Assembly: GCA_963716475.1 (NCBI GenBank)
Contig: OY970314.1
Location: forward strand, 787,865 to 851,864
Source: Candidatus Woesebacteria bacterium
Lineage (GTDB): Bacteria; Patescibacteriota; Microgenomatia; UBA8517
DNA length: 64,000 nt
Reading direction: 5' to 3'
The translations under genes were made by a program, and so were the position numbers. Under the pieces are notes generated by a model. That model had not been told where the DNA came from. It ran no database searches and worked only from the letters and a program-made list of their open reading frames with translations. Shown here piece by piece: positions 1-59,900 of this stretch (position 1 is its first letter; the number at the start of each line of letters is the position of its first letter).

Positions 1-501
1 GGCCCTTCCGGAGAAACAATAACCATTTCTATCCACTCTGAACAAATTCCTGCCCAGAACGTTCAAATACCGGGAAGCGGCTCATGGAGCTATAGCCCGT
101 CCACCCCGCTTTCTGATGGACCCCATTCAATTACCATTTCCTGGTTGGATGCAACAGGAATCACAAGAACATTAACCAGAAATTTTGTGGTGCAGGCGGG
201 AGAGGTACCGGCTTTTGTTGCCACACCATCAGGTAAAACACCTATCCCGACCCCAACGGCAAGCCCGACACCAAAGACTTCTTCAAGTCCGACACCAACT
301 CCCACTCCAAGACCGACTGTAACCGCTACCCCTTCAGCTATACCCAGTGCAAGACCTTCGACTACCCCCAGGGTAACACCCACGATAGCACCCGAGTCCT
401 TACCCGCCACAGGCGATTTGACTCCCACTCTTCTGCTATCTATCATGGGAATTGCCATAATCGCTTTCGGTTTTTTTGTTTGGAAAATAGCCGATCGCTA
501 A
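1..501 (+). CDS. Partial (5'-truncated) surface protein. It has a PT-rich linker and a C-terminal LPATG-like sorting signal, then a hydrophobic segment and a basic tail (KIADR).
   Basis: Frame 1 is open from base 1 with no stop, and the ORF-track protein ends ...ESLPATGDLTPTLLLSIMGIAIIAFGFFVWKIADR. The LPxTG + TM + charged-tail architecture is typical of sortase substrates. Confidence 0.55.
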   Translation, partial: GPSGETITISIHSEQIPAQNVQIPGSGSWSYSPSTPLSDGPHSITISWLDATGITRTLTRNFVVQAGEVPAFVATPSGKTPIPTPTASPTPKTSSSPTPTPTPRPTVTATPSAIPSARPSTTPRVTPTIAPESLPATGDLTPTLLLSIMGIAIIAFGFFVWKIADR

Positions 502-505
502 GCTC

Positions 506-1537
506 ATGCCCAACCAAGATAAGTCTACCCAAAACCAAAATCCGGTAAGTCTGTCTGCGGACCCGCCGGTCGATCAAGCCACTACGCCACCCGTGGCGCC
601 AGTACTTTTCCCTCAATCGGATCTCCCACCGCTTTCACCCGAGTTTCAAAACCTGTCAAAAAACGATGTTCCCGCTATTCCTCCGGTTAACAGCGATGCC
701 GGTTCGGCTACTCCACCTGACATTTCCTCCGTAATTCCCAAAGCCAAGAAAAAGTTCGGAGGAGGAAAAATAATTGCAACAATTTTGGGTCTGGTTCTGC
801 TTGTTGGAGGAATCGGGGCAGGAATAATTTTGATTCAACAAAAACAACTCGTGCCGCAACAGGCATCAACAACCGGTACTATAAGAATCTGCCACAGTAC
901 CGGCTCTGGCGCCAATCCCTATATAGTTAATAATCCAGACAAAACAGGTGATGTTGGTGGGCATGATGGACACAATGGTCCTATCTGGTATAGTGGCATT
1001 GCCGGAGCTTGGGGAGATATTATTCCTCCTTTTAACTATGATAACGGAGGTCACTATAACGGCAAGAATTGGACCGACGAGGGACAAGCTTTTTACAACA
1101 ATGGCTGCAGTACACCAGCCCAATCACCAACAGCTTCACCGACAGTATTGCCAACGGCATTGCCGACAGCATCGCCAACGGTATCACCAATGGCAACAGC
1201 TTCACCAACTGAATCACCCACGGCGTCACCAATTTCGCCATCTTGTATACCAGTTAGAGCATATGATGATTATTGGGTTACCTTAACAAATGTACAGCTA
1301 TCTGCTTTAACGGCCGGTGACCTTGTCAACTTCTGCGTTAATGGATCTGCTACTTCCGGTAGTTTTGACAAGGCGCAATTCATGATTAATTCAACCATCG
1401 AACCTGAAACTACAAACAAGCGGCCGGGTTCAAGCGATTTTTGCCAGTCCTACACAATTTTATCAACCGACACAACCGTAAGTGTTAAGGCAAAAATCCA
1501 TCACTCGTCGGGTATCTGGGTGGGGGAAAATTTCTAG
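506..1537 (+). CDS. Type-II membrane-anchored surface protein (cassette gene A1). It has a proline-rich N-terminal tail, one TM, a variable Gly/His/Asn-rich middle domain, a PT linker and a conserved C-terminal domain.
   Basis: The 343-aa ORF shares its N-terminus with ORF 2278..3444 (MPNQDKSTQNQNPVSLSADPP...). A single hydrophobic stretch (IIATILGLVLLVGGIGAGIILI) follows a KKKFGGGK motif. The C-terminal about 110 aa are conserved with the paralog. Confidence 0.6.
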   Translation: MPNQDKSTQNQNPVSLSADPPVDQATTPPVAPVLFPQSDLPPLSPEFQNLSKNDVPAIPPVNSDAGSATPPDISSVIPKAKKKFGGGKIIATILGLVLLVGGIGAGIILIQQKQLVPQQASTTGTIRICHSTGSGANPYIVNNPDKTGDVGGHDGHNGPIWYSGIAGAWGDIIPPFNYDNGGHYNGKNWTDEGQAFYNNGCSTPAQSPTASPTVLPTALPTASPTVSPMATASPTESPTASPISPSCIPVRAYDDYWVTLTNVQLSALTAGDLVNFCVNGSATSGSFDKAQFMINSTIEPETTNKRPGSSDFCQSYTILSTDTTVSVKAKIHHSSGIWVGENF

Positions 1538-1539
1538 TT

Positions 1540-2157
1540 ATGAAAAACTTTTTAAAAGGTAAAATTGGAACAATAATAATATTATTTTTCACTGTGATTC
1601 TGGCAGGGGTGGCGGTCTTCACAGCTCTTAGACTTTATCAACTCCGTCAAGAACCCGTTGCACCCAATGTCCCGTCAAGCATCCCCCGTGCAGAAGAAGC
1701 AACTTCGTCACCGGCTGGGGCTTGTACTCTGACGTTTACCATCTCTTCAGCGACAGCGTCACCGACGGAATCTCCGATGGCGTCACCAACTGCGTCACCC
1801 ACAGCCTCGCCAACAGAATCTCCGACGGCGTCACCAACAACCTCATCAACCGTCACACCGACAGCAACACCGACTGTTACTTCCACTGCCACTCCGACCC
1901 TTACCACAAATCCTTCAGGTGCACCTAATTCCTGCGGGGGTACCTGTGGAAGTGATTTAAATTGCGGAAGCGGTTTGTACTGTTACCAGGGTTTCTGTAG
2001 GAATCCTTCCTGCCCAACCCAAAGTAGTTGTAGTTGTCCGAATGCGCCGGCACCAACATCACCCGCCCTTCCTGCTTCCGGTACTGACTGGCCGACAATT
2101 GTCGGAGCAGGTTTCGGACTGTTCATAATAATCGGATCACTCCTTTTGGCACTATAG
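1540..2157 (+). CDS. Small Cys-rich surface protein (cassette gene B1). It has an N-terminal signal/anchor, a PT linker, a Cys-rich module and a C-terminal LPASG motif followed by a hydrophobic tail.
   Basis: The 205-aa ORF begins 3 nt after A1. It starts MKNFLKGKIGTIIILFFTVILAGVAVFTAL..., contains NSCGGTCGSDLNCGSGLYCYQGFCRNPSCPTQSSCSCP, and ends LPASGTDWPTIVGAGFGLFIIIGSLLLAL. Confidence 0.6.
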   Translation: MKNFLKGKIGTIIILFFTVILAGVAVFTALRLYQLRQEPVAPNVPSSIPRAEEATSSPAGACTLTFTISSATASPTESPMASPTASPTASPTESPTASPTTSSTVTPTATPTVTSTATPTLTTNPSGAPNSCGGTCGSDLNCGSGLYCYQGFCRNPSCPTQSSCSCPNAPAPTSPALPASGTDWPTIVGAGFGLFIIIGSLLLAL

Positions 2158-2277
2158 ACCGGCCTGTGTAAATTTTTATCCAATCTTACTGAAATCTCGG
2201 TTTTATCGGCTGTGTCTGCAATGTGATATATTTAAACTGTTTCGTAAATCTGATTTTCTTATCAAATAAAACAAGAA

Positions 2278-3444
2278 ATGCCCAACCAAGATAAGTCTAC
2301 CCAAAACCAAAATCCGGTAAGTCTGTCTGCGGACCCGCCGGTCGATCAAGCCACTACGCCACCCGTGGCGCCAGTACTTTTCCCTCAATCGGATCTCCCA
2401 CCGCTTTCACCCGAGTTTCAAAATCTGTCAAAAAACGATGCTCCCGCTGTTCCTCCGGGTAACAGTGATTCCGGTTCGGCTACTCCACCTGACATTTCCT
2501 CCGTAATTCCCAAGGCCAAGAAAAAGTTCGGAGGAGGAAAAATAATTGCAACAATTTTAGTACTGGCTGTGATTATTGGAGGACTCGGGGCAGGGGTACT
2601 GCTAACTCAACAACAACAACTTTTCAAACAAAAGGCGATTGGAGCTTGTGGTGACGATTGCACAACAATAGGAGAGACAAAGTGCGTTACTGGTCAAACC
2701 CAGTCCTGGATTACAATTTGTTCGGTACCTCTCGCCGGTTGTAGTAATAATTACTGGAAAATAGATCATTACGTAGATAGTTGTTCTTCACCGCCAACCA
2801 GTCCACCCAACCCGGAAAAATGCAGTAACCCGGGCGGAGGCAACCCAGATGGTTGTTATAATCAGTATCCTGGTTATGAATATTGTTCTGTCACCAATTT
2901 CGGTAACGGTGGGCTAAACCATATGCGCTGTGACAGAACTGGCGCTAGCGGATTGTGTACAAATACGTATATAGATCCCTGTGATAACCCCTGTCTTGAC
3001 CGGCCATCAACCCCTAGTTATGTTAAACCACCTGAATGCTCGGGCGGAACACCAACGCCTACTGTTACACCGACATCATCGCCGACCTTGTCACCTACCG
3101 CTACGGCCTCGCCAACAGAATCGCCTACCGCATCGCCAATCGCACCCTCCTGTATTGCGGTTAAAGCATATGATGATGGCTGGACTGTCCTAACGAATGT
3201 GCAACTTTCTGCTCTAACGGCAGGTGACATCGTTAACTTCTGTGTTAATGGGTCCGCAACTTCTGGGACGTTCGACAAAGCTCAATTTAAAATCAATTCC
3301 ATTCTCGAACCCGAAACCACAAACAAACGACCTAGTACGGACGACTTTTGCCAGTCCTACACAATTTTATCAACAGACACAACTGTAAGTGTTAAGGCAA
3401 AGATTCATCACACAACACTGGGATGGTTCGGGGAAGAAATCTAA
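2278..3444 (+). CDS. Paralog A2 of the surface protein. Its N- and C-terminal modules match A1, but the central domain is a different, Cys-rich one.
   Basis: The 388-aa ORF has its first roughly 95 aa and last roughly 110 aa near-identical to ORF 506..1537. The central ACGDDCTTIGETKC...CDNPCLD region is unrelated to the A1 centre. Confidence 0.6.
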   Translation: MPNQDKSTQNQNPVSLSADPPVDQATTPPVAPVLFPQSDLPPLSPEFQNLSKNDAPAVPPGNSDSGSATPPDISSVIPKAKKKFGGGKIIATILVLAVIIGGLGAGVLLTQQQQLFKQKAIGACGDDCTTIGETKCVTGQTQSWITICSVPLAGCSNNYWKIDHYVDSCSSPPTSPPNPEKCSNPGGGNPDGCYNQYPGYEYCSVTNFGNGGLNHMRCDRTGASGLCTNTYIDPCDNPCLDRPSTPSYVKPPECSGGTPTPTVTPTSSPTLSPTATASPTESPTASPIAPSCIAVKAYDDGWTVLTNVQLSALTAGDIVNFCVNGSATSGTFDKAQFKINSILEPETTNKRPSTDDFCQSYTILSTDTTVSVKAKIHHTTLGWFGEEI

Positions 3445-3447
3445 AAA

Positions 3448-4017
3448 ATGAAAAACTTTTTAAAAGGTAAAATTGGAACAATAATAATATTATTTTTCAC
3501 CGTGATTCTGGCAGGGGTGGCGGTCTTCACAGCTCTTAGACTTTATCAACTCCGTCAAGAACCCGTTGCACCCAATGTCCCGTCAAGTATTCCCCGTGCA
3601 GAAGAAGCAACTTCGTCACCGGCTGGGGCTTGTACTCTGACGTTTACCATCTCTTCAGCGACAGCGTCACCGACAGAATCTCCGACAGCATCACCAACTA
3701 CCACACCGACAGTTACCCCAACTGTCACACCAACGGTAACTCCTACAGCCACTTCCACCGTGACTCCAACTTCTTCAGGCTCTCCTAATTCCTGCGGGGG
3801 TACCTGTGGAAGTGATTTAAATTGTGGAAACGGTTTGTACTGTTACCAGGGCTTCTGCAGGAATCCGTCATGCCCAACCCAAAGTAGTTGTAGTTGTCCG
3901 AATGCGCCGGCACCAACATCACCTGCCCTTCCTGCTTCCGGTACTGACTGGCCGACAATTGTCGGAGCAGGTTTCGGACTGTTCATAATAATCGGGTCAC
4001 TCCTTTTGGCACTTTAG
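3448..4017 (+). CDS. Paralog B2 of the small Cys-rich surface protein.
   Basis: The 189-aa ORF is about 95% identical to B1 at the DNA level at both ends. The PT linker differs: TPTVTPTVTPTVTP against SPTASPTESP. Confidence 0.6.
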   Translation: MKNFLKGKIGTIIILFFTVILAGVAVFTALRLYQLRQEPVAPNVPSSIPRAEEATSSPAGACTLTFTISSATASPTESPTASPTTTPTVTPTVTPTVTPTATSTVTPTSSGSPNSCGGTCGSDLNCGNGLYCYQGFCRNPSCPTQSSCSCPNAPAPTSPALPASGTDWPTIVGAGFGLFIIIGSLLLAL

Positions 4018-4082
4018 CGGGATCGTCATCCTCAACTCGATACCCAATAGTAACTTTTACCAAGCTGTGCTGGAAAAGCCAT

Positions 4083-6527
4083 CTATCTCCATGAGGCAAC
4101 CCAGTAATAGCTTTTGTCCAGCCACAAAGGAACTTGAAGTCCTACCCAATGAGGATAAAAATAAACGAAAAGTGAAAAAGCGAGAACAAAAAACGGAAGT
4201 GCCAGCTTTGGATTCCGGCGCAAAACATACCCCGCAGCGATCGCCAAAAAAGGAATCGAGGGAAGATAGTGGTACAAAAACATAATCCTTGGTGAAACTG
4301 CCCAAGGTACAAAGAAAATTAAATAGGCAAAAACAACGAAAGCCAAATTTTTATTTTTCTCCAAAAATGAATAAATTAATGACAAAGCCACCGACGCCAG
4401 ACCAAACCAGAAAACCAGAGGATTCCCCATAGCATAGATTCTTGCAACCATTCCTCCCACTTCCTCACTTGTATAAAGATAAATCGGGCGCATAAGAAGC
4501 GGCCAGCTCCACCAGGGGGATGAATAGGGATGAGTAGCACGAAGGCCTGTGTGATACCACCACATCTGCTCCTGCATTCCCCACCAGATAGACAAATTGT
4601 GCCCCGTTAAAAACATCGGCAGATAAGTTAAAAGGTAAATAGTAATTGGTAAAAGCAAAAAATAAACAAACATTGGTAATCCAAACTTATTTTTACGTCT
4701 TAGCCAAAGAACAAAAATGATCGGGGTTACCCAAAGAGCCGACCATTTTGAGGCCATTGCAAGACCAAATGATAATGCCGACAAAAGATCTTTTTGTTTT
4801 AAGAATAGATAGATTGATAAAAGAGCAAAGAAAAGAATATAGCTGTCGTTCATTCCAATTCTACTCATTACAAGAGCAAGTCCGTCGAGGGAAAATACAG
4901 CCGCCGCCAGAAGCCCAACCGCTTCATCTTTGAAAAGTTCCTTTGCCAAAAGATACACAAGGAATACCGAACCCACCCCGAGGATCGCCCCCGGAATTCT
5001 CCAACCGAAAGAGTTTTCGCCAAAAACCAGCATTCCCAAAACCATTCCCAACTTCGCAAGCGGCGGATGGGTCCACTCGTAGGCAAAACCGGCGGGTGGC
5101 GTATTCCACCATTCCCAAGCCTTGGGATCACCGTGCAAAATGACCCGGGCAGTAAAAGCATGATAAACCTCATCGAAATAGTCATTCTTGGGAGACCACA
5201 AATCAAAAGTTCTGGTTGCAAAGGCAAACATTAATATCAAGATTAAGACAAGTCTTGCCCTTTGGGGGCTAAGTGAAAGCTTTGGCAACTTTTCCGGAGA
5301 CCCTGAAACCCCTCTCTTCTTCCAATGATTAACAAACCGGTTTACGATCAACAGCATCTTTCCCCATTCCGCTTTCAGACCACGGGCAATTGAATAAAAT
5401 ATAACAACCACAAGGCTAATATTTACTACCTCCAAAAGTTTAACTGTAAAGTCGGAAAAGATCTGCCTAAAGTTATCCGTGATCCAAACGTAAGAATAAT
5501 AAAGATTGGAAACATAAGTCAGGGAAAATCCAAGGTAGGGAATTAAAAATATCGGATTCTCAATAGCAATAATTGCCAGCGGGGCAAAAACAGGAAGTAA
5601 ATGCCTCTCGTGCATCCTCGTAAAAAAAATAAAACTGGCAGCGAAAACAAGTGCTGAAAGATAATAGGGTGCGTTCTTGCTTCTCCAAAGTTTAAAGGAC
5701 GCAAATAAAGCTAAAAGTAAAGTCAGCGTATAACCGCCAAGCTGGTAATAAATATTATCCGCTTTCCATAACCCGAACAGCCCCCAAAAGTTAAACGCAT
5801 TAACGGAAGTATAAGGGTACTGACTAAGTGATATTCCAAGCCGTTCATATATAAAAGAAATTAGGTTACCGTGATTCCAGAAGGGAATAAATAAACCAAT
5901 AAATACCAATAAACCAATAAGCAAATAAGCAATTATTTTTTGTACCTTCCACTTTTCTTTAAGCATCATGAATATAATCACAGGGAATATAAATGCGGTC
6001 TGGGGTTTAATCAAAGTCCCTACTGCCAAACTAACGGCCGACAAAATAAAACTAAAAGGCATTAGATACATTGAGAGAGTGGAGGTCAAAGCAGTCAGAG
6101 AATCGACCTGACCCCAAAGTGAGGAATTGGCAAGAATGGCAGGATTAAAAAGATAAATTCCGGCGCCAATAAGCGCCCACTTTTGACCTTTAGATCTTAC
6201 TAAAATTTTATAAATTAGATAACCTGTACCTATATCAGCAAGTACCGCAGGCAATTTATACAGTATCGTGTCGGGAACAATATTCCTGATTCTTCCGAGA
6301 AAATACAAAATATATAGATACCCAGGTAGGTAGTCACTCCAGGAATTATAAAAAACCTTAAATCCGTCTCTAACCAGGGCTGAACTCCAGCCAATAAAAG
6401 TCCCCTGATCAAGGTGTAACGTTCCGAAACCCGAGAAGAGAATTCTCACCATGAACCCGATGAGTAAAACATATACAATATTTGGTATGAAAAAGATTCT
6501 CTTTTTTGCCTTTGTGCTTTCTTTCAT
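4083..6527 (-). CDS. Large polytopic membrane glycosyltransferase that appears to fuse two GT-C modules. The C-terminal half is GT39 (PMT / protein O-mannosyltransferase-like).
   Basis: The 814-aa protein is hydrophobic with many TM segments. Its second half contains ...TRTFDLWSPKNDYFDEVYHAFTARVIL...WRIPGAILGVGSVFLVYLLAKELF, the FDEVYHA-type loop-1 motif of GT39/PMT enzymes. The start overlaps the divergent ORF 6451. Confidence 0.65.
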   Translation of the reverse strand: MKESTKAKKRIFFIPNIVYVLLIGFMVRILFSGFGTLHLDQGTFIGWSSALVRDGFKVFYNSWSDYLPGYLYILYFLGRIRNIVPDTILYKLPAVLADIGTGYLIYKILVRSKGQKWALIGAGIYLFNPAILANSSLWGQVDSLTALTSTLSMYLMPFSFILSAVSLAVGTLIKPQTAFIFPVIIFMMLKEKWKVQKIIAYLLIGLLVFIGLFIPFWNHGNLISFIYERLGISLSQYPYTSVNAFNFWGLFGLWKADNIYYQLGGYTLTLLLALFASFKLWRSKNAPYYLSALVFAASFIFFTRMHERHLLPVFAPLAIIAIENPIFLIPYLGFSLTYVSNLYYSYVWITDNFRQIFSDFTVKLLEVVNISLVVVIFYSIARGLKAEWGKMLLIVNRFVNHWKKRGVSGSPEKLPKLSLSPQRARLVLILILMFAFATRTFDLWSPKNDYFDEVYHAFTARVILHGDPKAWEWWNTPPAGFAYEWTHPPLAKLGMVLGMLVFGENSFGWRIPGAILGVGSVFLVYLLAKELFKDEAVGLLAAAVFSLDGLALVMSRIGMNDSYILFFALLSIYLFLKQKDLLSALSFGLAMASKWSALWVTPIIFVLWLRRKNKFGLPMFVYFLLLPITIYLLTYLPMFLTGHNLSIWWGMQEQMWWYHTGLRATHPYSSPWWSWPLLMRPIYLYTSEEVGGMVARIYAMGNPLVFWFGLASVALSLIYSFLEKNKNLAFVVFAYLIFFVPWAVSPRIMFLYHYLPSIPFLAIAAGYVLRRNPKLALPFFVLAFSLFVYFYPHWVGLQVPLWLDKSYYWVASWR

Positions 6528-28582: not shown

Positions 28583-29458
28583 CTATTTAAGATTTGCACT
28601 CCCAGTGGCTTCCTCTACTTGAGTAATCTTTTTAACATATTGTCCTGCCACCCAACCTTCAATTCCGTTCGGTAAACCAGATGCCGGTGCCTCATACTGA
28701 ATTTTTACCCACCCCGTCGCCACGTCTTCGTCAAGAAACAGATATTGCTCCCCCGGCTTGACTTGAGCAATCTCACTGCCGGCTGTACCGGGGCCGGATC
28801 TGACCCTCAAAAATCCTGTAGGGGTAGAAAGTATTTGAACGTAAGTTTTCACCACAGGAACCGGGGTGGGTGTGGGCTGCGGTGTAAGAACCTTGGCAAG
28901 TTTTGCAAACAAGGAGAGCCGAAAGCCAACTAGTGTTTTTACTGTCATTATTCTGTCGGTATAGCCCGGCGCCCTGACTGTAATTTGATGCTGGGCGGGT
29001 GAAATATCCGAAGTTTTATACGGCGCAAAGCCTTGAGGTAAGCCGTCTACCGAAACTTGAGCATTTTCCGGTGTTGATATTACAATTAAGCCAGTTTCTG
29101 CACCCCCGATTCTGTCGAAGGAAATTACGTCTCCGGAAGATTCATCTTCAGTCCCGCCAAACTCTCTCCTTACAATGGTTTGTATGCCGGGAACAAGTGT
29201 TATTTTTGTTTCATAGGCAATCAGATTTTGCCCGGTTGAGTCAGGAACTAATTTAAGCATTATCTCCCCCGCCTTGAAAGCGCTTGTGTATGGAGTTTTG
29301 CCCACCAAATTTTCGTTAACGTAAACGTCTGAAACAGGGCTGGTATCAATAAATACGCCGCCAGGTTTCTCTCTGAAATATCCAATCAAAAAAAAGACTG
29401 CAACAATCAGGGCCGTTAGGGAGATGAGCGAAATAATTACAATTTTGGCTATCTTCAC
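28583..29458 (-). CDS. Membrane-anchored protein with two PEGA-like beta-sandwich domains and a C-terminal SH3b-like domain.
   Basis: N-terminal TM, then repeats such as VYVNENLVGKTPYTS and VSVDGLPQGFAPYKTSDISPAQHQITVRAPGY, then a C-terminus ...GFLRVRSGPGTAGSEIAQVKPGEQYLFLDEDVATGWVKIQ. Confidence 0.45.
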   Translation of the reverse strand: MKIAKIVIISLISLTALIVAVFFLIGYFREKPGGVFIDTSPVSDVYVNENLVGKTPYTSAFKAGEIMLKLVPDSTGQNLIAYETKITLVPGIQTIVRREFGGTEDESSGDVISFDRIGGAETGLIVISTPENAQVSVDGLPQGFAPYKTSDISPAQHQITVRAPGYTDRIMTVKTLVGFRLSLFAKLAKVLTPQPTPTPVPVVKTYVQILSTPTGFLRVRSGPGTAGSEIAQVKPGEQYLFLDEDVATGWVKIQYEAPASGLPNGIEGWVAGQYVKKITQVEEATGSANLK

Positions 29459-29561: not shown

Positions 29562-29637
29562 GGCCGGATGGCGAAGTGGAAACGCGGGAGTCTGCAAAAC
29601 TTCTATCGCGCGGGTTCGATTCCCGCTCCGGCCTCCA
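29562..29637 (+). tRNA. tRNA-Cys (anticodon GCA) with an encoded CCA end.
   Basis: It folds manually: acceptor GGCCGGA/TCCGGCC, D-arm GCGA..., anticodon stem GGAGT/ACTTC with loop CTGCAAA (anticodon GCA), T-arm GCGGG-TTCGATT-CCCGC, discriminator T, then CCA. Confidence 0.85.
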
Positions 29638-30836: not shown

Positions 30837-31433
30837 CTAATTGTTTTCAAGACTCCGCCATAAATACCATGAAGCGACCGTACGGTACGGTTTCCAATAT
30901 TTTTCGGCAAACTTGGCAGAAGTCACCTTATCAAACTTATTTCCTGTGACTTTTTCGAAACCATTTTTAATTCCCAAATCCTCGACCGGAAAAATATCAG
31001 GACGTCCCAAAGAAAACATAAGAAACATGTCCGCAGTCCACGGGCCAATTCCTTTCACTGCCAAGAGTTCACTTTTGACCGTACTATCGGACTTTTCCGT
31101 TAGTTTATTTACATGAAGTTGGTTGTTTTTTACTCTTATAGACAAATCCTCGATTGCCCTCACTTTGCTCCAGGCCATTCCGCAATTTCTGAGTTCGTCA
31201 TCTGCTAGGGCCAATACTTTATCGGGGGTTAGCCTCCCTTTAACCTTAGCTTTTAGCCGTCCTTCGATTACATCCGCTACCCGGCCGGAAAGCTGTTGTC
31301 CGATTATTGCACTCACCAAACCTTGATAGTAATCAGTATGAACTCTGGGTTTTATTGTACAACGCCCCCACTTTTTAATCAGGGGTGCAATATGTTTGTC
31401 TTTGAGAAGAAATTTTTCTGCCTCACTCCACAT
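30837..31433 (-). CDS. HhH-GPD base-excision glycosylase, AlkA-like (3-methyladenine DNA glycosylase II).
   Basis: LVSAIIGQQLSGRVADVI...LLAVKGIGPWTADMFLMFSLGRPDIFPVEDLGI shows the HhH + GPD with catalytic Asp arrangement. Confidence 0.7.
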   Translation of the reverse strand: MWSEAEKFLLKDKHIAPLIKKWGRCTIKPRVHTDYYQGLVSAIIGQQLSGRVADVIEGRLKAKVKGRLTPDKVLALADDELRNCGMAWSKVRAIEDLSIRVKNNQLHVNKLTEKSDSTVKSELLAVKGIGPWTADMFLMFSLGRPDIFPVEDLGIKNGFEKVTGNKFDKVTSAKFAEKYWKPYRTVASWYLWRSLENN

Positions 31434-33061
31434 TAATAGTCCATTCCGCCCATTCCGCCTTGTGGCATTACGGGTTCTTTCTTTTCCTCGGGTATATCTG
31501 TCACAAGTCCCTCGGTTGTAAGGACCATCATGGCAACGCTGGCTGCATTTTGGAGTGCGCTTCTGGTTACCTTTACGGGGTCTATCACTCCAAATTTTGT
31601 CATTGATCCGTATTCCCCTGTCAGGGCATTATATCCGTAATCGTTGTCCTTACTTGCCAACACTTTTTTCAAAACCGCTTCCCCATCCTCCCCGGCATTT
31701 TTGGATAGCCACTTAATCGGTTCCTCGAGTGCCTCCCAAACAATATCAACCCCGATTTGTTCGTCACCTTTCTCAACCTTGAGTTTCTTTACGGCACCTC
31801 GGGCTCTGAGAAACGCCGTTTCGCCACCCGGAACAATCCCTTCCTCAGTTGCAGCTTTTGTAGCTCCAACCGCATCTTTTACTCTTTCTTTTTTATCATT
31901 AAGTTCAATTTCAGTAGCGGCTCCAACGTTTATCTGGGCGACTCCGCCAGCAAGTTTTGCCAACCTTTCTTCAAACTTCTCCTTATCAAAATCACTATCT
32001 GTAACCTCTATCTGCTTCTTAATCGAGCCTATTCTGGCATCAATTGCTCCCTTGTCACCCTTACCACCGATCAGTCTGGCGTTATCCTTGTCTGCCCAAA
32101 CTTTATCTGCCTGTCCCAAATCCGTCACTTCAATGGATTCAAAATTGCGTCCAGTATCTTCCGATATTACCGTCCCGCCGGTTAGAACCGCAATGTCTTC
32201 GAGCATTTCTTTCCTTCTGTCACCAAACCCGGGGGCTTTAATTGCCAAAACATTAAAAGTTCCCCGGAGTTTATTTACCACCAGGGTGGCTAAAGCTTCT
32301 CCTTCAATTTCGTCGGCAATAATTACCAAATTCTTGGAAACTTTTACAAATTTTTCCAGGAAAGGAAGAAGATCCTGAATCGCAGAAATCTTTTTATCCG
32401 TGATAAGTATGTATGCCCCTTCAATTTCAGCTTCCATCTTATCAGGATTGGTTACAAAATATGCTGAAGCATAACCCCTGTCAAACTCCATTCCTTCCTT
32501 ATATTCAATATCTATGGTCAAACCTTTTCCTTCTTCAACAGTGACAACACCGTCACGGCCGACTTTATCAAGCGCTTCGGCAATCTTGGCTCCAATTTCG
32601 GTATCCCCGGCGGAAATTGCGGCCACCTGCGCAATTTCTTCTTTATTCTTAATGGGTTTTGCCATTTTTTTGAGTTCCGCTGTCACGGCTTCAACTGCCT
32701 TTTCAATGCCCTTTTTGACAATCATTGGGTTGGCGCCAGCATTAATTTTGGCCATTCCCTTTTGGGTCATAACCTGAGCCAGAAGAGTTGATGTTGTAGT
32801 TCCGTCTCCCGCATTATCGTTGGTTTTACTCGCAGCCTCTTTAACAAGTTGTGCACCCATGTTTTCAAAAGGGTCCGGAAGGTCGATTTCTTTTGCAACA
32901 GACACCCCGTCATGAACAATGTTTGGGGCACCCCACTTTTTATCGAGGGCGATATTTCTTCCCTTGGGGCCAAGAGTGGTCACCACGGCTTTAGCTACAG
33001 TATCAATTCCTTTTAAAAGCGCTTCTCTGGCTTTGTTGGAAAATTTTAATTGTTTCGCCAT
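31433..33061 (-). CDS. groL: Chaperonin GroEL.
   Basis: [59 protein letters not shown]... with a C-terminal GGMGGM tail. Confidence 0.95.
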
Positions 33062-39662: not shown

Positions 39663-41726
39663 ATGGAACCCCAGTACGATCACACAAAATACGAGAGTGA
39701 TATTTATAAAAAATGGGAAGACTCCGGCGCCTTTTCTCCAAAACATGATGGTAATAACCCGTTTACTATCATTATGCCCCCTCCAAATGCCAATGATCCC
39801 CTTCACATCGGACATGCCAGATTTGTCGCCATTGAGGATATCTTAATCCGCTACCACAGAATGAAAGGGGAACCAACCCTCTGGCTTCCGGGAAGCGATC
39901 ACGCAGGAATCGAAACCCAGTTCGTTTTTGAAAAGAAACTAAGGGAAAAAGGAAAAAGCCGTTTCGATTACGACCGCGATACTTTATATAAAATGATTTG
40001 GGATTATGTTCAGGAAAATACCGGATTAATGGAATCCCAACTCAAAAAACTCGGTGCCTCCTGTGACTGGAGTAGATTTAAGTACACACTTGATCCCGAA
40101 ATTATAAAAATCGTGTATAAAACCTTTAAGAAACTTTACGACGACGGGTTGGTATATCGGGGTGAAAGAATTGTAAATTATTGTCCCCGCTGCGGTACTG
40201 CCTATTCGCAACTAGAGGTAGATTACGTCGAACGCGATGATAATTTCTACTATCTGGATTACGGTACGATCACAATCGCCACAACCCGGCCCGAAACAAT
40301 ATTTGCAGACGTTGCGGTTGCCGTTAATCCCAAGGATAAAAGATACACTAAACTAATCGGATTAAACGCAAAAATACCGCTTATTAACCGCGACGTTGCC
40401 ATAATTGATGATAATCTTGTAGATATAAGCCTAGGAACCGGGGCTCTTAAAATTACACCTGCACATGACTCTACAGATTTCGAGATCGGGCAAACCCACA
40501 AACTCCCCATCATATCCGTAATTGATGAAAAAGGTCGTATGACAGGTACTCCCGAGAAATACATCGGTCTGAAAGCGGAAATGGCAAGAGCTGAAGTCGT
40601 AAAGGACTTACAGGCTGCAGGTAAGATAAAGGAAATCGACGTCATTCACCATTCGGTAGGCACTTGCTACAAGGATCACGGCTTAATCGAACCCATGGTT
40701 TCCAAACAGTGGTATATAAAGGTAGAAAGTTTAACTAAAAAAGCTCTTGGGTCAGTAAGAAACAAGGAAGTCAAGTTTGCCGTTAAAAAGTACGAGAAGA
40801 TAGCAACTAATTGGCTAAAAAACCTTAAAGATTGGAATATAAGCCGTCAAATTGTCTGGGGAATAAGAATTCCGGCCTGGAGATGCGAGAAGTGTTTGGA
40901 ATGGACAATCACCGACGGAGATATTCCGACCGAATGTTCAAGTTGCAACAATAAAGTTTTATCGCAAGACCCGGACACGTTTGATACCTGGTTTTCCTCG
41001 GGTCAATGGCCATTCGTCACTTTACAAACGGGAAAATCCGGCGATTTTGAAAAGTTTTATCCGACAAGTGTTATGGAAACGGCCTACGATATACTACCTT
41101 TCTGGGTGATAAGAATGATTATGCTCGGGGTTTATGCAACCGGAAAAGTTCCGTTTAAAGAAGTTGTTATCCATGGGCTTGTCAGGGACCGCGAAGGACA
41201 AAAAATAAGTAAGTCCAAAGGGAATGTCATAAATCCAATTGAGATGACCGAAAAATATGGTGCTGATTCTTTACGGATGGGGCTTGTTTGGGGAGGGCTT
41301 ATTGAAAACGATATCACCCTTGATGAACAAAAGATTAACGGTCAGAGAAAATTTGCAAACAAAATTTGGAATATCGCCAGGTTTGTCACTTCAAGTCAAT
41401 CCGTTAAAAAAGCCACAAAAAATGCCGACGATGAACTTGTTCTAAGCGAATTGAAACAAACAATTAAAAATGTTTCAAAAGATTTGAACAAATTCCGTTT
41501 AAACGAAGCCGCTGAAAAAATATATGATTTTGTATGGCATAAGTTCGCCGATGTCTATATTGAAAAAACCAAGGACAGACGCAAAGAAGCCCAACCTACT
41601 CTGGAAAAAGTCCTTGTCAATTCACTTAAACTTCTCCACCCGTTTATGCCCTTTGTCACAGAACAAATCTGGCACGAAATGGGGAATAATGAGCTTCTGA
41701 TTACTTCCGAGTGGCCTAAAACTTAA
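39663..41726 (+). CDS. valS: Valyl-tRNA synthetase, short form without the C-terminal coiled-coil.
   Basis: PPPNANDPLHIGHARFVAIEDILIRYHRMKGEPTLWLPGSDHAGIETQ (HIGH), KMSKS KISKSKGN, and CPRCGT Zn knuckle. The N-terminal region is ValRS-like rather than IleRS/LeuRS-like. Start at the internal Met; the ORF track begins at 39594. Confidence 0.8.
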   Translation: MEPQYDHTKYESDIYKKWEDSGAFSPKHDGNNPFTIIMPPPNANDPLHIGHARFVAIEDILIRYHRMKGEPTLWLPGSDHAGIETQFVFEKKLREKGKSRFDYDRDTLYKMIWDYVQENTGLMESQLKKLGASCDWSRFKYTLDPEIIKIVYKTFKKLYDDGLVYRGERIVNYCPRCGTAYSQLEVDYVERDDNFYYLDYGTITIATTRPETIFADVAVAVNPKDKRYTKLIGLNAKIPLINRDVAIIDDNLVDISLGTGALKITPAHDSTDFEIGQTHKLPIISVIDEKGRMTGTPEKYIGLKAEMARAEVVKDLQAAGKIKEIDVIHHSVGTCYKDHGLIEPMVSKQWYIKVESLTKKALGSVRNKEVKFAVKKYEKIATNWLKNLKDWNISRQIVWGIRIPAWRCEKCLEWTITDGDIPTECSSCNNKVLSQDPDTFDTWFSSGQWPFVTLQTGKSGDFEKFYPTSVMETAYDILPFWVIRMIMLGVYATGKVPFKEVVIHGLVRDREGQKISKSKGNVINPIEMTEKYGADSLRMGLVWGGLIENDITLDEQKINGQRKFANKIWNIARFVTSSQSVKKATKNADDELVLSELKQTIKNVSKDLNKFRLNEAAEKIYDFVWHKFADVYIEKTKDRRKEAQPTLEKVLVNSLKLLHPFMPFVTEQIWHEMGNNELLITSEWPKT

Positions 41727-42238
41727 GGGGCCGCAGTTGGAGAACTTGAAGGCCTTGCTGTTGGGCTGGCAGTAGGGCTTGCGGTCAGACTAGCAGATGG
41801 GGACGCTGTTGAAATTGGTCTTCCGGAACCGCTTGCTGTCGGTACTTCTATCGGAGTAGCGGCCGGAATAATGGTTGGTGTAAATGTGGCCACCGTCGTT
41901 GGGGTTGGCTGAGGTGAAAGAAGTTTTGCACCAAAAACATACGCCGCAACTGCCAAAACAGCAACTAATGCCAAAATTATCGCTATTATCAATAAAGGTG
42001 ATTTTTTCTTTGGACTTTCCTGCACAGGAGTCACTGTTTCAGCCGGAGGGGGTGACGCGGTCTCTAAAGGAATCACTGACGGAGATTCCTGTGCCTGTGG
42101 GTTCTGTACAACGGGCTGTTCCACGGGTACCGGCTGCTGCGGAACGGTAACATCCTGTTTAACGGGGTTTTGCAAATCCTGTCCGGGGTTCTTTACTCCA
42201 CCATCTTCCCCTTGCGGATTTTGATTATTTGGGTCCAT
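41723..42238 (-). CDS. Pro/Gln/Thr-rich single-pass membrane protein, hypothetical.
   Basis: 171 aa with a low-complexity N-terminal half, a TM LLIIAIILALVAVLAVAAYVF, and a PT-rich tail. Confidence 0.35.
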   Translation of the reverse strand: MDPNNQNPQGEDGGVKNPGQDLQNPVKQDVTVPQQPVPVEQPVVQNPQAQESPSVIPLETASPPPAETVTPVQESPKKKSPLLIIAIILALVAVLAVAAYVFGAKLLSPQPTPTTVATFTPTIIPAATPIEVPTASGSGRPISTASPSASLTASPTASPTARPSSSPTAAP

Positions 42239-53914: not shown

Positions 53915-56900
53915 TTAATTACAAGTTGCCGTACTTGTACAGCCAAGCGGAACATTTCTTTTAAGATAAGGTTTTTGAGTTGTGGGAATAGGCCCCGTGT
54001 CAAAGAATTGGAAGTGTAAATGAGGACCACTGGTACAGCTACCTGTGTTGTCACTGATTCCGAGAGGTTGGCCAATTGTTACTCTTTGACCGTTGCCAAC
54101 CATAACAGAACCCAAATGTCCGTAATATGAACTAAACGACGATCCGCCGCAGGACGAAGCCACACGAACCCACCTTCCCCCACAGGCGCTTTCCCCGGTG
54201 CTTATGGTTCCGCTATGCATGGCAATGATGGTTGCACCATTTACGCCAATGTCGATTGCATTTGGGGTGTTGTAATGTGTCCACCCCAGGGGTGTCATGG
54301 ACCCTTGGGTAATAAGATTTATGCCTGCGTCGTTGGCAAGAGGCCAGGCATTATTTGGGCATTCCATTGGCGGGGCGCCAATTATTATTGAGGCAGATCC
54401 TGCCGAAACCACACCCTTTTGGTCCGTCGTGTCTGCAGTAACAGTAAACGTGTTTACCGTTGCAGAATTGTCATAGTTGTGAGAGGTAAAACTTCGTGTG
54501 TAAGTGAAGCTAAAAGGTTTGGTCGGCGAAATCGAAACAGGCGCCGCAGGTGTCCCTTGAGAAGGGCTTGGGCAAGAGGGAGGTGTCCCTGTTTTGATAA
54601 CTTTGCATTCATCTTTAAAGGAAACATTGGTTAATACGCCTTTTTTAGCAGAAACAGTAATTGTATAGGTAATCTTGGTTTTTGTGGGAATGTCGGAGTT
54701 ATTGAAAGGGCCTGCGGGATTGGCAGTTTTTTCAACACTGATATAAGGGTTACTTAAAGCGGCAAGATAACCGGTTGGGGTTGACGGAGGAACGACATAG
54801 GCGCCGGAGTTAATAATAAAAAGAATCAGGGCAACCAGAACGGGGATGACGAGAAGGGCTATTAATATAGGCATAACAGCGGCTGTCAAAAAGGTCCTCC
54901 CTACGGCGCGAAAAAATACCGCAATTCCACTTCCAACTCCGGCCATTGTTACTCCGGCCGTGGAAGCGACACCAACGCCGACCACCGTGATCCCACCCAA
55001 AATAAGACCCGTACTACCGATGACCAAGCCACCAACCAGCATAGGCGCCCCAATAATGGCGCTTCCAATTGCCATGCCGTTTTCTTTTACCTTTTTCCAG
55101 TTGATCTTTTCAATAATTTTTCCTACCACCCAACCCAATGCCAAGGCAATCGCATTCCCGATAATCGGTATCCATGACCCTAGAGTCTGAAGAGCTGTGT
55201 TGAGAGCAACCATCGTGCCCTTGCCCACCACTGATACAGCGGCTTTTGTTGCCGCAGATGCAGCAGCCTTTCCCACTACTGGTGTTAGTAATTTTGTTAC
55301 CGCCTCGGTTTCAATTCCCGTTGCGAGACCTTCCGCGGCGACAATCCCGGTAGCACCCTCGGCCAATAAGGTTCCTCCCTCGACAACGGCTGCTTCTTCG
55401 ACCAACGCAGTGCCCTCAGTTACTAAAAGAGACGCTTCGGCAATTTCGGCAGGGGCAGCTGCACCGATCAGATCAATTCCCAAAACGTCGCCGAGACCTT
55501 CGAGAAAATTCGAACCACCCGGAATTTTTTGAATAAGACCCCCGAGCGGGCTTTCACCAATTGGCGTGGTCTTACTAAATCCCGCAGACGATAAGACTTG
55601 TTGTCCCAGCTCACTGTTGTAAAATTTGGAAATGGCGCTGTCTGCAGGCAGGTTGGCTATTTTAGAATCAAGAAAGTCTCTGGCACGACCCGTTAGTAAA
55701 CTTTTAGCCTTATCGCTAGCAAAAGAGCCAATATTGTCCAGAACATCTGACTGTGATTCCAGAAGATTAGTGTAGCCTTCATTAAGTTGCCCGAGGTCTA
55801 TTTCGTGTGTGTATCCTTCGTTCGGTTGACCTAAAAAGGAAACTTTTAAATTTTCGGGACCCGTACCAAAAACAGAAACTGCAAGATTTTCGTCTATTGA
55901 AGAGAGAATGTTCTTACTAAGTTGGGCGCTATTCTTAAAATGACCCAGATCCGCGGAGGCCTTTTTTAGAAGTTCGGCAGTGTTTGTTTCGGCGACCAAC
56001 TTTGGCAGAATCTTTGAATCCTCGGCTAAAGCACCCAGAATAGCGGATTGAGTGTTTGCGGATGATTGGGCGGGGAAATTATTAATTGCAGAAACCGTAT
56101 CAAATGCCGTTTTTTTGACTATAAAATCAATTTGTTCCGGGGTAAGTTTCTTTGAAAGCTCCGGGGTTATTTTTGCTTTTATACTTTCTGCCAAATCTTT
56201 TTCAAAGGATGCGGGATAATTTTTCGCTTCTTCTATAAACTTGATCGTACTTTCACTTGGTGGAGGAGCCTCTTTTGAAATTTCCACCCGGGCGTAAATC
56301 TTTTTACCCGTTAAAGGTTCCTGGATATCTTTTTGTCTACTAATAGCTTCTTCCAACTTTTCTTTTGCCCCCTCGCTTATGGTTGGTTGTTCCGGAATTA
56401 CCATTTTTTCTTCTGGTAGCTCAGCCGTAGGTCCCGCCTGTCGGGTAAAAAGAAGCGGTACGGATGTTATTGATTCAGAGGTAGGAGATGTTTCTATCGG
56501 TTGGCCTGAAAGTGAGACGTATGGGGTTAGTGTTGGAGCAGCAACCGCAACTGCGACAGCCGACGGTTCCACATTTAGTACCACAGGCTTAACTTCAGGG
56601 AGAACAACCTTGTCTAAAAGAACAGAGGTTTGCTTTGCAGATTCGCTCATTTTCCCGGGATAGTTAGCAGGCATAGACATCTTGGGCAGAACGGAAGGAG
56701 GTTCAATTTGACCGATTTCTACTTGTGAAGTAATAGTTGTGACACTGTTGCCAAAACTGTGAACATCGCTAATGTTGATTGCAGGTAAACTTTGATTCTC
56801 CTGATTCTCGGCTATTTTAAATTGGGTTGCCTCCTCGGGGCCGTAAGCAGCCACAACCACGTTTTCCGGTAGAAAAGTCTTCAAGAGAGCGGTGTTTGTT

Positions 56901-59900
56901 TGGTACTGTGTATTTGCGACGTCTGCGGCTGTTTTTGCAGCAGAAGCAAACTTCACCCTTTCTTCTGTGTCAGGAATGATGTTCTTAAGACCGGGATCGC
57001 GTGCGTCTGCTACAGCACTAAAATAAGCAACGGGATTAATGGGTGAGGCAATCTCTTTGGGAAGATCTTCTACGGTATTTATATTCTTACCTGCATCAAC
57101 CATACGCAAGGTGAAGTCTTGCGCTGTTTTTCCAATTACGGCCGGGGTTATAGATGCCTGTAGTGGTGGGTTTTTGGCAACAGCCGAACTGATATTTTCC
57201 TCAACGATTTTTTCGAAGGCGGGAGGGTCGTTTTTGGCGGCCTTCACAACATTAAAGAAGGCCGTTCGATCCTTGTTGCTTTGGAGAGGAATTGTTACTG
57301 TTTCAGTAGCAGGCTCAATTCTTATTTCCTTGACCGCAGTTGATGTTGTTTTTGGGGGGGTGGCAACCGCGACGGTTCCTCCGAAAAGCTCTTCCGGGAG
57401 AGAAACCTTTTCCTTGTTTATTGGGGATGGTTGGGAGGTGGTCTGGGAAGCTCCGAATTCGTCTGAAACAGGCATTTCTGATACGGAAAAAGGTGTTTCG
57501 GGAGCAGTGGTTTGTAGTATTGTGGCATGGGCGACGGGTGTTTCAGTTGTGGACAGCTCCGGCGCCAAGTTCTTTGCTTGAGTTAGGGGTTCTTCAATGG
57601 GGGCATTTTTAACACCAAAAAACGCCCTTATTCGGTCATTAATTTTTAGTTTGGTTGACGGAACCGTCGGAGTGGTGGAGACATTGATCTGAGAAACACT
57701 GGTGGGAGTTCCTACTTCGGGGGAATGCTCAGCCTCGTTAACGGGTAGCTGGGAATATGATGGTGGAAAGCCCGTTTCTTCGGTGGTAGGTAAGGGTTTG
57801 GGATTTGAAGCGGCATTCTTGTTTACAGGTATCAGGGCCGGGATTGGGGTAACAACAGGCTCCTCTGAAATGGGTGATGGTGTTTCGGAAGTGGGGGTGG
57901 TCTCCGAAGGAGTTTGACTTACTGTCGCCTGAGCAAATTGAACAGGAGGAGCAAAAACGGTCGGTGGAAACGGCGTCTGACTTGGCTCTGGAATTTGAGG
58001 AGTTTTCCCCAAGCCTTTAACAACACTATCCGTGGGCTTAACCTCTTGTGTTTGTACTACCACTGTTGGAATCACCGGTGGTATAAGCGTTACGGATGGT
58101 TCTTCGAAAACCGGTTGTGGGGACTCTTCCGTCACGGGAACGAAAGGCGGGTTCTCCGTTATTGTGGGTTGTGGTGTGCCTGGTGTAACCTGTGTTAGGT
58201 AAGGCGGTGGCGTGTATGTTACGGGTTGTGTTATGCCGGCTGCGCCTACCGAACCGGGTACACTTGTTGTTTCTTCATACGGTATCGGAGGGGTGGTATA
58301 TATCGCGGTTTCCTCTTCCGGGATCGGTTGTAACGGTTGTGGGGATTCCTCCTCTGTCCTTGCAATATGTCCAACGGCCTTTTCTCGTGAGGGCTCCCTG
58401 GTGCTGGATTCCTCTTTGGCTAGACCTTCGTTTTCCACCGGTGCCGGTTTTTTCTCAGGAGCTTTTTCAAATGTTTTTCTGATCCCTTCAAAGAAATTTT
58501 TCGGTGGGGCCTCGTCTGTAGTTTGTCTTGATTCGCCAGGTGTCCCTTTGGCCTTAGGAATTGTTCCATATACCATGGGTTGTTCTTCAGGAACGGGTTG
58601 TGATGCAGCGGATGTACCCAGAATTGACACATCTTGGGTTGGTTGAGTGGGCCGGTTAGACTGAATTGGCTGAATAGTCGGAATATACGCTACGGGTTTT
58701 TCCTCCTGGATTGGTTGCACCCCCTCTTCTCCTGCCGCCTCCTCCGTCTTTTTTGGTTTAGCTACTTTTATGGGTTGAGAGGTGTTTGGAGTATTTTGTG
58801 TGTTTGACGGTTGTTGATACCATGCCGATTGAACCTGTTGAGTGGGTTGAATCGGAATGTTTGCTGTACCCGGATTTTTTTGTATCTCTTCCGGCGCTCC
58901 CTGCGGAACAGACTGAGCCGGGTTATCGTTCTCTTTGGGAGCGGCCTTCCCGATAATGGCCGCTTGAAACGTTTTTGTTAGATTTTGAAAAGCCTGTTGG
59001 GGTGAAAACCTTCCCTTTGGTTTTGGTACACTTGGTAATTTTGACTCACCTGTTGCCTGCGTGAATGTTTGTGGCTGTTTTTCAAAAACATCCTGTGCAA
59101 GGAACGGCTCCCTGCTCAATTCGGGAGATTCTTGGATCTCCTCTTCTGTCGCTTGCGCTTCTTCTTGCCGGATTTTTTTCTGAAGATCGGCCTTACCGGT
59201 AAGCTCCTCCTGTCTACGGATTGCTGTTTTAATAGCATTTCCCAAAGCGTCGGATACTGTTTGTGTAGAGAATAGCTTTTTTGATTCCGACTTACTTGGG
59301 TTTACTGGTGAACGCATATCTTGCCTGTTTATTTCCGGTTGTTTTAATATGACACCGGGTGTCACAACGACCTCTGATGGGTGTGCGGACGGAATATGTT
59401 GTTTGAATTCTGGAGGTTTTAAAATAGCCTTTGCCTTTTGTACCTGCGGGGTCGCTTGCGGGGTAGGTTGTTTAACGGTCGTTTCCTTACCTTTTTCTGG
59501 AGCATTCTCGGCAGCTTTGACTTTTGAAGCTTCCGCCAGTGCCTGTTTTTTTTCTATTGAAGCCTGAACCTTTGCTTGGGCTTGCAGTTTTGTTTGTTTT
59601 ATCTTGCCTGTTCTTAAATTTTCCTCCGCCTGTAGTTGTGCCAGTTGATCCGGAGTTAAGGTGGTTGGGTGTACGGGGTATTCCGGCGCGCTTGTAACTG
59701 TCCGATATAAGATATTACTGGCAGACCTGATGTCGCTTGTTTTGGTTAGGTCTGTTATATAAACAAAGAAATCTTTATTGCTTGGCCAGTGGTATTTCCC
59801 GTCGATTGTCGTGAAAGATTCGTCGAGGCTCCTGTTTTCTCCTTCACCGAACAAATCGGACTTGAAAACTTGTTCGGTTCCATGAATAAGACCTTGAAGA

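Follow-up and report, generated by a model that had tools for sequence, protein, structure and literature searches.

How do two adjacent copies of one gene pair come to share their ends and to have nothing in common in the centre? This question is raised by a stretch of 64,000 nt from a Candidatus Woesebacteria genome (assembly GCA_963716475.1, contig OY970314.1, positions 787,865-851,864). This whole stretch is called the window below, and gene coordinates count within it. The open reading frame (ORF) listing gives four complete genes on the + strand at the locus, in the order A1, B1, A2, B2 (Table 1). Our answer, which we regard as probable, is that A and B are two envelope proteins of an operon conserved in Woesebacteria, that the middle of A is swapped by recombination, and that the window carries a rare tandem of two alleles.

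Anatomy and segment ages of the two A-B copies

Self-BLASTN aligned two blocks of the copies. The first, 506-849 against 2278-2621, is 93% identical (E 6e-148); the second, 1163-2157 against 3070-4017, is 82% identical (E 0). Both blocks were also recovered by repeat finding and pairwise alignment. The central region of A, between the two blocks, does not align. The A1-B1/A2-B2 repeat is far above chance expectation, and the tandem duplication proposed in the initial annotation stands, with gene coordinates that the ORF listing reproduces exactly.

We then computed, for each segment, the identity and the Nei-Gojobori synonymous (dS) and non-synonymous (dN) divergence between the copies. The cytoplasmic tail of A (codons 1-94) is 97.2% identical at the DNA level, with a dS of 0.03 and a dN of 0 in codons 1-50, and of 0.10 and 0.04, respectively, in codons 51-94. 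In the same way, B exhibited 98.3% DNA identity in codons 1-79 (dS 0.07, dN 0) and 94.3% in its last 82 codons (dS 0.18, dN 0.02). The transmembrane segment of A (codons 95-118) is only 70.8% identical in DNA and 50% in amino acids (dS 0.48, dN 0.33). The last 16 codons of the Pro/Thr (PT) linker of A are also 70.8% identical in DNA, with 13 of 15 synonymous sites changed and 15 of 16 amino acids identical. Finally, the C-terminal domain of A (98 codons) presents 75.9% DNA and 79.6% amino acid identity, with a dS of about 1.3, which is saturated (0.56 in the last third), and a dN of 0.14. Judged by these values, the 5' end of A and all of B are young or homogenised; the C-terminal domain of A diverged anciently, and its likeness is held by purifying selection and not by gene conversion. 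The near-identical DNA initially noted at both ends is thus found in the A tail and in B, and not in the transmembrane segment or the C-terminal domain of A. The 3' ends of A, which had been taken as homogenised, are old and conserved as protein only. A has no sorting signal; such a signal occurs only in B (LPASG and a transmembrane segment) and in the upstream protein (LPATG).

The relationship of the copies to other homologues also depends on the segment. The N-termini of A1 and A2 are 96% identical to each other and reach at most 72% identity with other homologues. Between the C-terminal domains of A1 and A2 the identity is 81%, compared to 78-80% with proteins of other organisms, and the top bit score of the A2 C-terminal domain was obtained with the homologue P0019, not with A1. 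Therefore, the more than 10-fold range of dS among segments, together with the disagreement between the N- and C-terminal rankings, indicates that recombination shaped the two copies.

The middle of A1 (aa 119-202) is rich in Gly, Asn and His with 2 Cys residues, and the middle of A2 (aa 119-262) contains 14 Cys. BLASTP gave no meaningful alignment between the two, and a profile of the A1-middle family compared with the A2 middle reached an hhalign probability of 0.35%. These results bear out the earlier description of the A middles as unrelated, and that of the B1 and B2 PT linkers as different, which are separated by a 48-nt indel and substitutions. The PT linkers contain imperfect 12- and 24-nt periodic repeats (at 1123-1190, 1751-1850, 3109-3144 and 3655-3712), which are mutually alike in A1, B1, A2 and B2 (60-76% identity). 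The linkers may be substrates for recombination or slippage.

The 120-nt junction between the copies is dissimilar to the sequence upstream of A1 and to that downstream of B2. Its derivation from a decayed 3' end of the upstream Big_13 gene or from the region after B2 was rejected, 191/500 and 139/500 shuffles, respectively, reaching the same score. The junction contains weak promoter-like matches; A2 is preceded by an AT-rich intergenic stretch of its own.

Table 1 Features of the A-B locus and of the adjoining genes, in window coordinates.
Feature	Position	Strand	Description
Upstream operon gene, 3' end	1-501	+	Fn3/Big_13 Ig-like, PT linker, LPATG; Pfam Big_13, Gram_pos_anchor, TIGR01167; cut by the window start
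A1	506-1537	+	343 aa, type-II membrane protein
A1 cytoplasmic Pro-rich tail	506-787	+	
A1 transmembrane and juxtamembrane segment	788-859	+	
A1 middle module	860-1111	+	aa 119-202, 'ICHxTG...WGDIIPPF' type
A1 PT linker	1112-1240	+	
A1 Ig-like C-terminal domain	1241-1534	+	
B1	1540-2157	+	205 aa; N-terminal transmembrane anchor, 'ACTLTFTI' motif, PT linker, Cys-knot module, LPASG, hydrophobic tail
B1 PT linker	1744-1914	+	
B1 Cys-knot module			CGGTCGSDLNCG...FCRNPSCPTQSSCSCP
Inter-copy junction	2158-2277	none	AT-rich, 120 nt
A2	2278-3444	+	388 aa
A2 cytoplasmic tail	2278-2559	+	same as that of A1
A2 transmembrane segment	2560-2631	+	diverged from that of A1
A2 middle module	2632-3063	+	aa 119-262, Cys-rich, unrelated to that of A1
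A2 PT linker	3064-3147	+	
A2 Ig-like C-terminal domain	3148-3441	+	
B2	3448-4017	+	189 aa; as B1 except for a shorter linker and 4 amino acid changes in the C-terminal part
B2 PT linker	3652-3774	+	16 codons shorter than that of B1
PMT-family (GT39) protein O-mannosyltransferase	4083-6527	-	Pfam PMT, PMT_2, PMT_4TMC; same position in L019-L026

Replacement of the A middle in related genomes

The middles of the A homologues were compared pairwise after masking of the PT linkers. No similarity was detectable between the middles in 94-98% of the pairs whose C-terminal domains are less than 70% identical, in 63% of those with C-terminal domains 80-90% identical, and still in 38% of those above 90%. 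After loci from a metagenome scan had been added, complete genes whose C-terminal domains agree at 90% or more had middles that were either 100% identical or unrelated, with nothing between.

Two pairs of strains exhibit the replacement at nucleotide level. The loci L027 and L024, which come from two samples of one study, present 4 mismatches in their first 2327 nt (99.8% identical flank), after which 18 mismatches cluster in the 80 nt coding for the transmembrane helix. The next 568 nt of L027 and 409 nt of L024 are non-homologous. The first codons of the C-terminal domain mark exactly the return of identity; about 10 mismatches fall in 45 nt, and the other 390 nt contain about 5. Similarly, the loci L065 and L081 are 96.1% and 94.6% identical in the flanks of 751 and 535 nt, respectively, of non-homologous sequence. 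In both pairs the locus is orthologous, syntenic and single copy, so that near-identical flanks enclose a non-homologous centre at one and the same site, as in surface-cassette switching at the level of the population. Such a pattern is the mark of homologous recombination with a donor allele that had diverged, and shows that the cassette was replaced allelically; its breakpoints coincide with the zones where the identity of A1 and A2 decays in the window. The cassette exchange or gene conversion first suggested for the window is therefore upheld as to recombination, by the central swapping in relatives and the mosaic dS; it did not convert the 3' end of A, and the exchange is allelic and takes place in the population.

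The tandem state of the window is rare, as only one other locus of about 100 contains two A genes. This locus, L104 (437-2508), belongs to a distant soil lineage, lacks B and carries an independent tandem of two A genes (357 and 315 aa) whose middles are unrelated. The pair is diverged throughout and lies between an EF-G-like fragment upstream and a UppS-like gene downstream.

The A and B protein families

No convincing match of A1, A2, B1 or B2 to a Pfam, NCBIfam or PADLOC family was found. The PADLOC match of B to PD-T4-6 (E 2e-6) lies on the transmembrane segment and on the PT linker, which is of low complexity, and was discarded as compositional, as were weak NCBIfam matches to GltJ, S-layer and PspM models (E 0.02-0.9). 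Homologue searches led to hundreds of proteins, all from metagenomes or metagenome-assembled genomes named Candidatus Woesebacteria or Patescibacteria. Literature searches returned no description of the A/B family in the Candidate Phyla Radiation (CPR) or in Woesebacteria; to judge by these searches, neither the protein family nor its occurrence in CPR bacteria and within a pilN operon has been described.

Architectures were counted on 154 retrieved A homologues. A C-terminal domain of about 98 aa is present in 153 of them, always at the extreme C-terminus, and its predicted structure is an Ig/FnIII-like sandwich with a mean predicted local distance difference test score (pLDDT) of 94.5. The cytoplasmic tail and transmembrane segment are shared by 94-119 of the homologues. 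The middles are mostly Cys-rich (median 8.9% Cys) and present recurrent sub-modules in differing combinations. Within this set the A1 middle recurs in one homologue only, P0002, and the A2 middle only partially, in the fragment P0091; a homologue search with the A2 middle alone gave no match.

Two side observations concern the layout and the annotation of these families. An identical A gene (P0028) is found on two contigs, L025 and L026; in a comparison of L025 9426-9980 with L026 3461-4000, B (179 aa) is annotated on just one of the two and recovered by translation from both, which is probably a gene-calling difference. Additionally, the window encodes at 41723-42238 (-) a 171-aa protein with a Pro/Gln-rich cytoplasmic tail, one transmembrane helix, a PT linker and no folded ectodomain. 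Its layout is that of the N-terminal half of A, to which it is not clearly homologous.

The orthologues of B are conserved at both ends and vary between them. The N-terminal end consists of a transmembrane segment with a 'C.L.FT' motif. In 25 orthologues the C-terminal end is (A/S)LPx(S/A)G followed by a hydrophobic tail with no charged end, and no model matched the B sortase signal. The middle of B contains no Cys-knot module, one or two of them, a DUF11 domain or a beta domain of another kind.

With about 80 aa, the A1 middle forms a discrete domain whose consensus is ICHATGSxSNPYV...GHDGHNGP...WGDIIPPFxY...YPGKNWTxEGQAIxNNGC. An exhaustive search detected it in 1535 representative proteins at E <=1e-3 and in 522 at E <=1e-10, with one to five copies per protein, often in very large adhesin-like surface proteins of CPR bacteria together with SpaA, SdrD_B, PKD or VWA domains. 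There is no Pfam model for this domain, and neither a sequence relative nor a structural neighbour was found in the PDB. The residues C11, H12, G34, D53, N70, G75 and C83 are invariant, H35 and H38 nearly so, which suggests a disulfide and possibly a metal site. A search of viral contigs detected no relatives of the A1 middle or of the A C-terminal domain.

The operon and its neighbourhood

The genomic context was examined in 18 loci from species-representative genomes, scanned with the alignment of the C-terminal domain and all belonging to CPR bacteria; a metagenome scan added 80 loci. A homologue of B follows A within a few bases in 18/18 of the genome loci, with one copy per locus. Overall, B comes after A in about 97 of the 99 related loci, and about 100 related loci are single copy.

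In the annotated loci L001 and L019-L026 the gene order is conserved. It begins with the dnaK operon (-), murJ (-), rpsT, pilN, a PilO-like gene and a gene for a 109-aa membrane protein, continues with an Fn3/Big_13 LPXTG protein of 444-454 aa, A, B and a 95-aa membrane protein, and ends with PMT (GT39) (-), PMT_2-like genes, LytR-CpsA-Psr (-), UvrD and FemAB. PilN is recognised by Pfam (4e-9) and by an INLLP motif; the PilO-like match is weak (Pfam E 0.01). The order downstream of B2 in the window matches that of the relatives except for the gene of the 95-aa polytopic membrane protein, which follows B in the relatives (L001 11036-11323, L019 12204-12491) and is absent from the whole window; the gap between B2 and the PMT gene is only 65 nt (4018-4082).

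The gene that ends at 501 is the counterpart of the 444-454-aa protein found directly 5' of A in L001 and L019-L027. It had been described as a third ORF with a PT linker and LPATG, and this was confirmed by a Big_13 Ig-like domain, LPATG, a transmembrane segment and a charged tail. Its putative sortase signal (LPATG, transmembrane segment, KIADR) gave weak matches to Gram_pos_anchor (E 0.01) and TIGR01167 (E 0.03). The PMT enzyme encoded at 4083-6527 likely glycosylates the PT linkers.

Other features of these records and of the window were observed. The Woesebacteria-type operon occurs in L002, L003, L005, L008, L010, L013, L014, L017 and L018, records titled 'uncultured Gammaproteobacteria' or 'Alphaproteobacteria'; these titles are probably taxonomic mislabels. 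At 53915-59953 (-) the window encodes a protein of 2012 aa that has an M23 peptidase domain at its C-terminus and a DUF7507 repeat; it adjoins an apparently split TraG/VirB4-like ATPase (59978-60634 and 60618-61802). Together with a PrgI-family protein at 62517-63611, they look like a type IV secretion-like cluster. A PEGA and SH3_3 envelope protein (28583-29458, -) adjoins tRNA-Cys (29562-29637), the only tRNA of the window, and GroEL is encoded at 31433-33061 (-).

Discussion

The anatomy of the genes, the synteny of the locus, the allelic replacement in relatives and the mosaic ages of the copies were observed directly, and on them we build the following proposal. A would be anchored by its N-terminal transmembrane helix, with its conserved N-terminal tail in the cytoplasm and the rest of the protein outside the cell, where the exchangeable module, the PT linker and the conserved Ig-like domain would follow one another up to the extreme C-terminus. 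The conserved ends would serve in two ways, as docking parts that fit A into a conserved complex, the middle facing the environment, and as homology arms. Through these arms other alleles, probably taken up as DNA, would recombine with the locus in natural populations and replace the whole central module, and nearly identical strains would come to display unrelated ectodomains. ComEC, DprA and type IV pili are common in CPR bacteria (PMC6744442), which provides a route for the import of alleles.

The window genome would then keep two alleles side by side as a tandem A-B duplicate, in which everything of A from the transmembrane helix onwards, middle and C-terminal domain included, would derive from a deeply diverged allele (dS above 1). 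This state could have arisen by a recent A-B duplication, after which a foreign allele replaced the transmembrane-to-C-terminal-domain segment of one copy. Alternatively, the duplication may be older, or a second allele may have been inserted, and gene conversion then acted on the A 5' end and on B.

Surface exposure of A, and selection on it by phages or hosts, are suggested by its transmembrane topology, its Cys-rich modules and PT linkers and by the PMT genes next to it. The Cys-rich modules are presumably disulfide bonded, the PT linkers would be O-mannosylated by the adjacent PMT enzymes, and B and the upstream protein are putative sortase substrates. CPR bacteria encode MdbA-like and VKOR oxidoreductases, i.e. 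extracellular disulfide machinery, and sortase is near-ubiquitous in Microgenomates (PMC6744442). Streptomyces that has lost Pmt is resistant to phage phiC31 (PMC8698208). The replacement of whole middles, with nothing of intermediate divergence, suggests negative frequency-dependent selection, exerted by phages or through the recognition of partner cells.

Several points weigh against this proposal. The functions of A and B are read from architecture and context only, the link to pilN and pilO is one of synteny only, with a weak PilO-like match, and the tandem state is known from one assembly only. Both of the histories given above fit the mosaic ages, and both involve recombination. Moreover, the variable module of A is membrane-proximal and its conserved domain distal, the opposite of most tip-variable adhesins, which makes the logic of exposure uncertain. 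A more far-reaching version, which we consider rather unlikely, would make A the specificity determinant of a partner-recognition apparatus linked to pilN/pilO, or the main phage receptor. The middle would then set the range of partners or phages, natural transformation would shuffle a pool of modules shared by the population, the tandem would confer two specificities, and the A1 middle would be a widespread extracellular fold of which no relative has been solved. Its possible metal site would involve the invariant Cys-His, the invariant Asp and a Gly-His...His motif whose His residues are nearly invariant.

Could the two copies be explained by a plain tandem duplication and ordinary divergence, the ends being kept by purifying selection and the middle drifting, with no recombination? 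The C-terminal domain of A shows exactly this pattern, with a dN/dS of about 0.1 and saturated dS, and the older tandem A-A pair of the distant lineage L104 is diverged throughout. However, the dS differs more than 10-fold within the gene pair (0.03-0.18 against above 1.3), and the similarity rankings of the N- and C-termini disagree. Furthermore, the domain family of the A1 middle is discrete and widespread, and the A2 middle does not match its profile; the middles are therefore different domains and not diverged copies, and we hold drift to be a very unlikely account of the locus. We attach just as little probability to an assembly artefact, in which two strain alleles of a single-copy locus would have been joined in tandem by the assembler. 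Such an error would fit the single-copy state of about 100 relatives, the occurrence of the tandem on one contig only and the missing 95-aa gene that usually follows B, and strain-level allele polymorphism at the locus is real, as L027/L024 and L065/L081 demonstrate. Against it, the 120-nt junction is unique and resembles neither the region upstream of A1 nor that downstream of B2, which argues against a simple concatenation of haplotypes at a repeat boundary. The conserved parts of the copies also differ by scattered substitutions and a linker indel, and the contig, of 982,852 bp, is about the size of one CPR bacterial genome.

The initial annotation had considered a phase- or antigenic-variation system with silent cassettes, that is, programmed variation within the genome, in which the copies, with possible silent cassettes, convert often or alternate in expression. 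The near-identical 5' ends and B (dS 0.03-0.18) would fit ongoing conversion, the 12-nt periodic repeats in the PT linkers of all four genes could mediate slippage, and A2 has an AT-rich intergenic region of its own. This idea found no support in the search for further cassettes, since A and B, searched for in the 64-kb window by TBLASTN and BLASTN, gave only the two full copies and no additional conserved ends. Both gene copies are complete, no recombinase, invertase, inverted repeat or homopolymer tract was found at the locus, and the arrangement is absent from nearly all of the about 100 single-copy relatives, so that we judge programmed variation to be most improbable. A diversity-generating retroelement was also considered and rejected: the middles differ in length and are unalignable, and no template-like repeat was found in 1-6000. 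Population-level replacement of the A middle by recombination, with two alleles kept in tandem in the window genome, thus remains our preferred explanation.

Mosaic surface proteins that are switched by recombination and kept as tandem paralogues are a well-known type of system. The S-layer cassette of C. difficile (slpA region) is switched by homologous recombination, and SlpA is a phage receptor (PMC7677006, PMC8809339). Like that cassette, the A locus is a surface locus at a fixed position that is replaced wholesale between close strains through conserved flanks, beside glycosylation genes. Unlike it, A belongs to another protein family and another organism, and the unit of exchange is not a multi-gene cassette but an internal module of one gene, from the transmembrane helix to the C-terminal domain. 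In addition, the window genome keeps two alleles in tandem.

The streptococcal emm/mrp/enn, staphylococcal sdrC-D-E and pneumococcal PspA/PspC genes are tandem paralogues that have conserved export or anchor ends and linkers rich in Pro or Ser/Thr; recombination has shaped their ligand-binding regions, which are unrelated or hypervariable. Their products have an N-terminal signal peptide and a C-terminal LPXTG or choline anchor. In contrast, A is anchored N-terminally, its cytoplasmic tail is long and its distal Ig-like domain is conserved; it has no sequence homology with them. The conserved ends around a variable centre, and the making of variants by recombination, also recall Neisseria pilE/pilS and Borrelia vlsE; however, those systems rely on promoterless silent cassettes, arrayed within one genome, and on features dedicated to recombination, and neither was found in the window. 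Finally, like the pilM/N/O operons of monoderms and CPR bacteria (PMC6744442), the A-B operon has as its first products a bona fide PilN and a protein weakly similar to PilO, and all of its products are bitopic membrane proteins. Unlike in those operons, A and B resemble no pilus component and no pilin, ATPase or PilC is encoded in the A-B operon, which leaves a likeness of synteny only.

Recombinational switching of surface proteins is already well known in pathogens, which makes this a modest advance in concept. Members of the CPR/Patescibacteria are believed to live attached to other cells, and to our knowledge almost nothing is known of the surface molecules that give them specificity for partners or phages outside the cultivated Saccharibacteria. 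The A locus is a conserved and readily spotted site in Woesebacteria at which near-identical strains differ by a wholesale swap of the ectodomain of one gene. The locus could be used as a marker in strain typing, A is a candidate interface protein for the study of host range or phage resistance, and the middles of A constitute a natural catalogue of small disulfide-rich extracellular modules.

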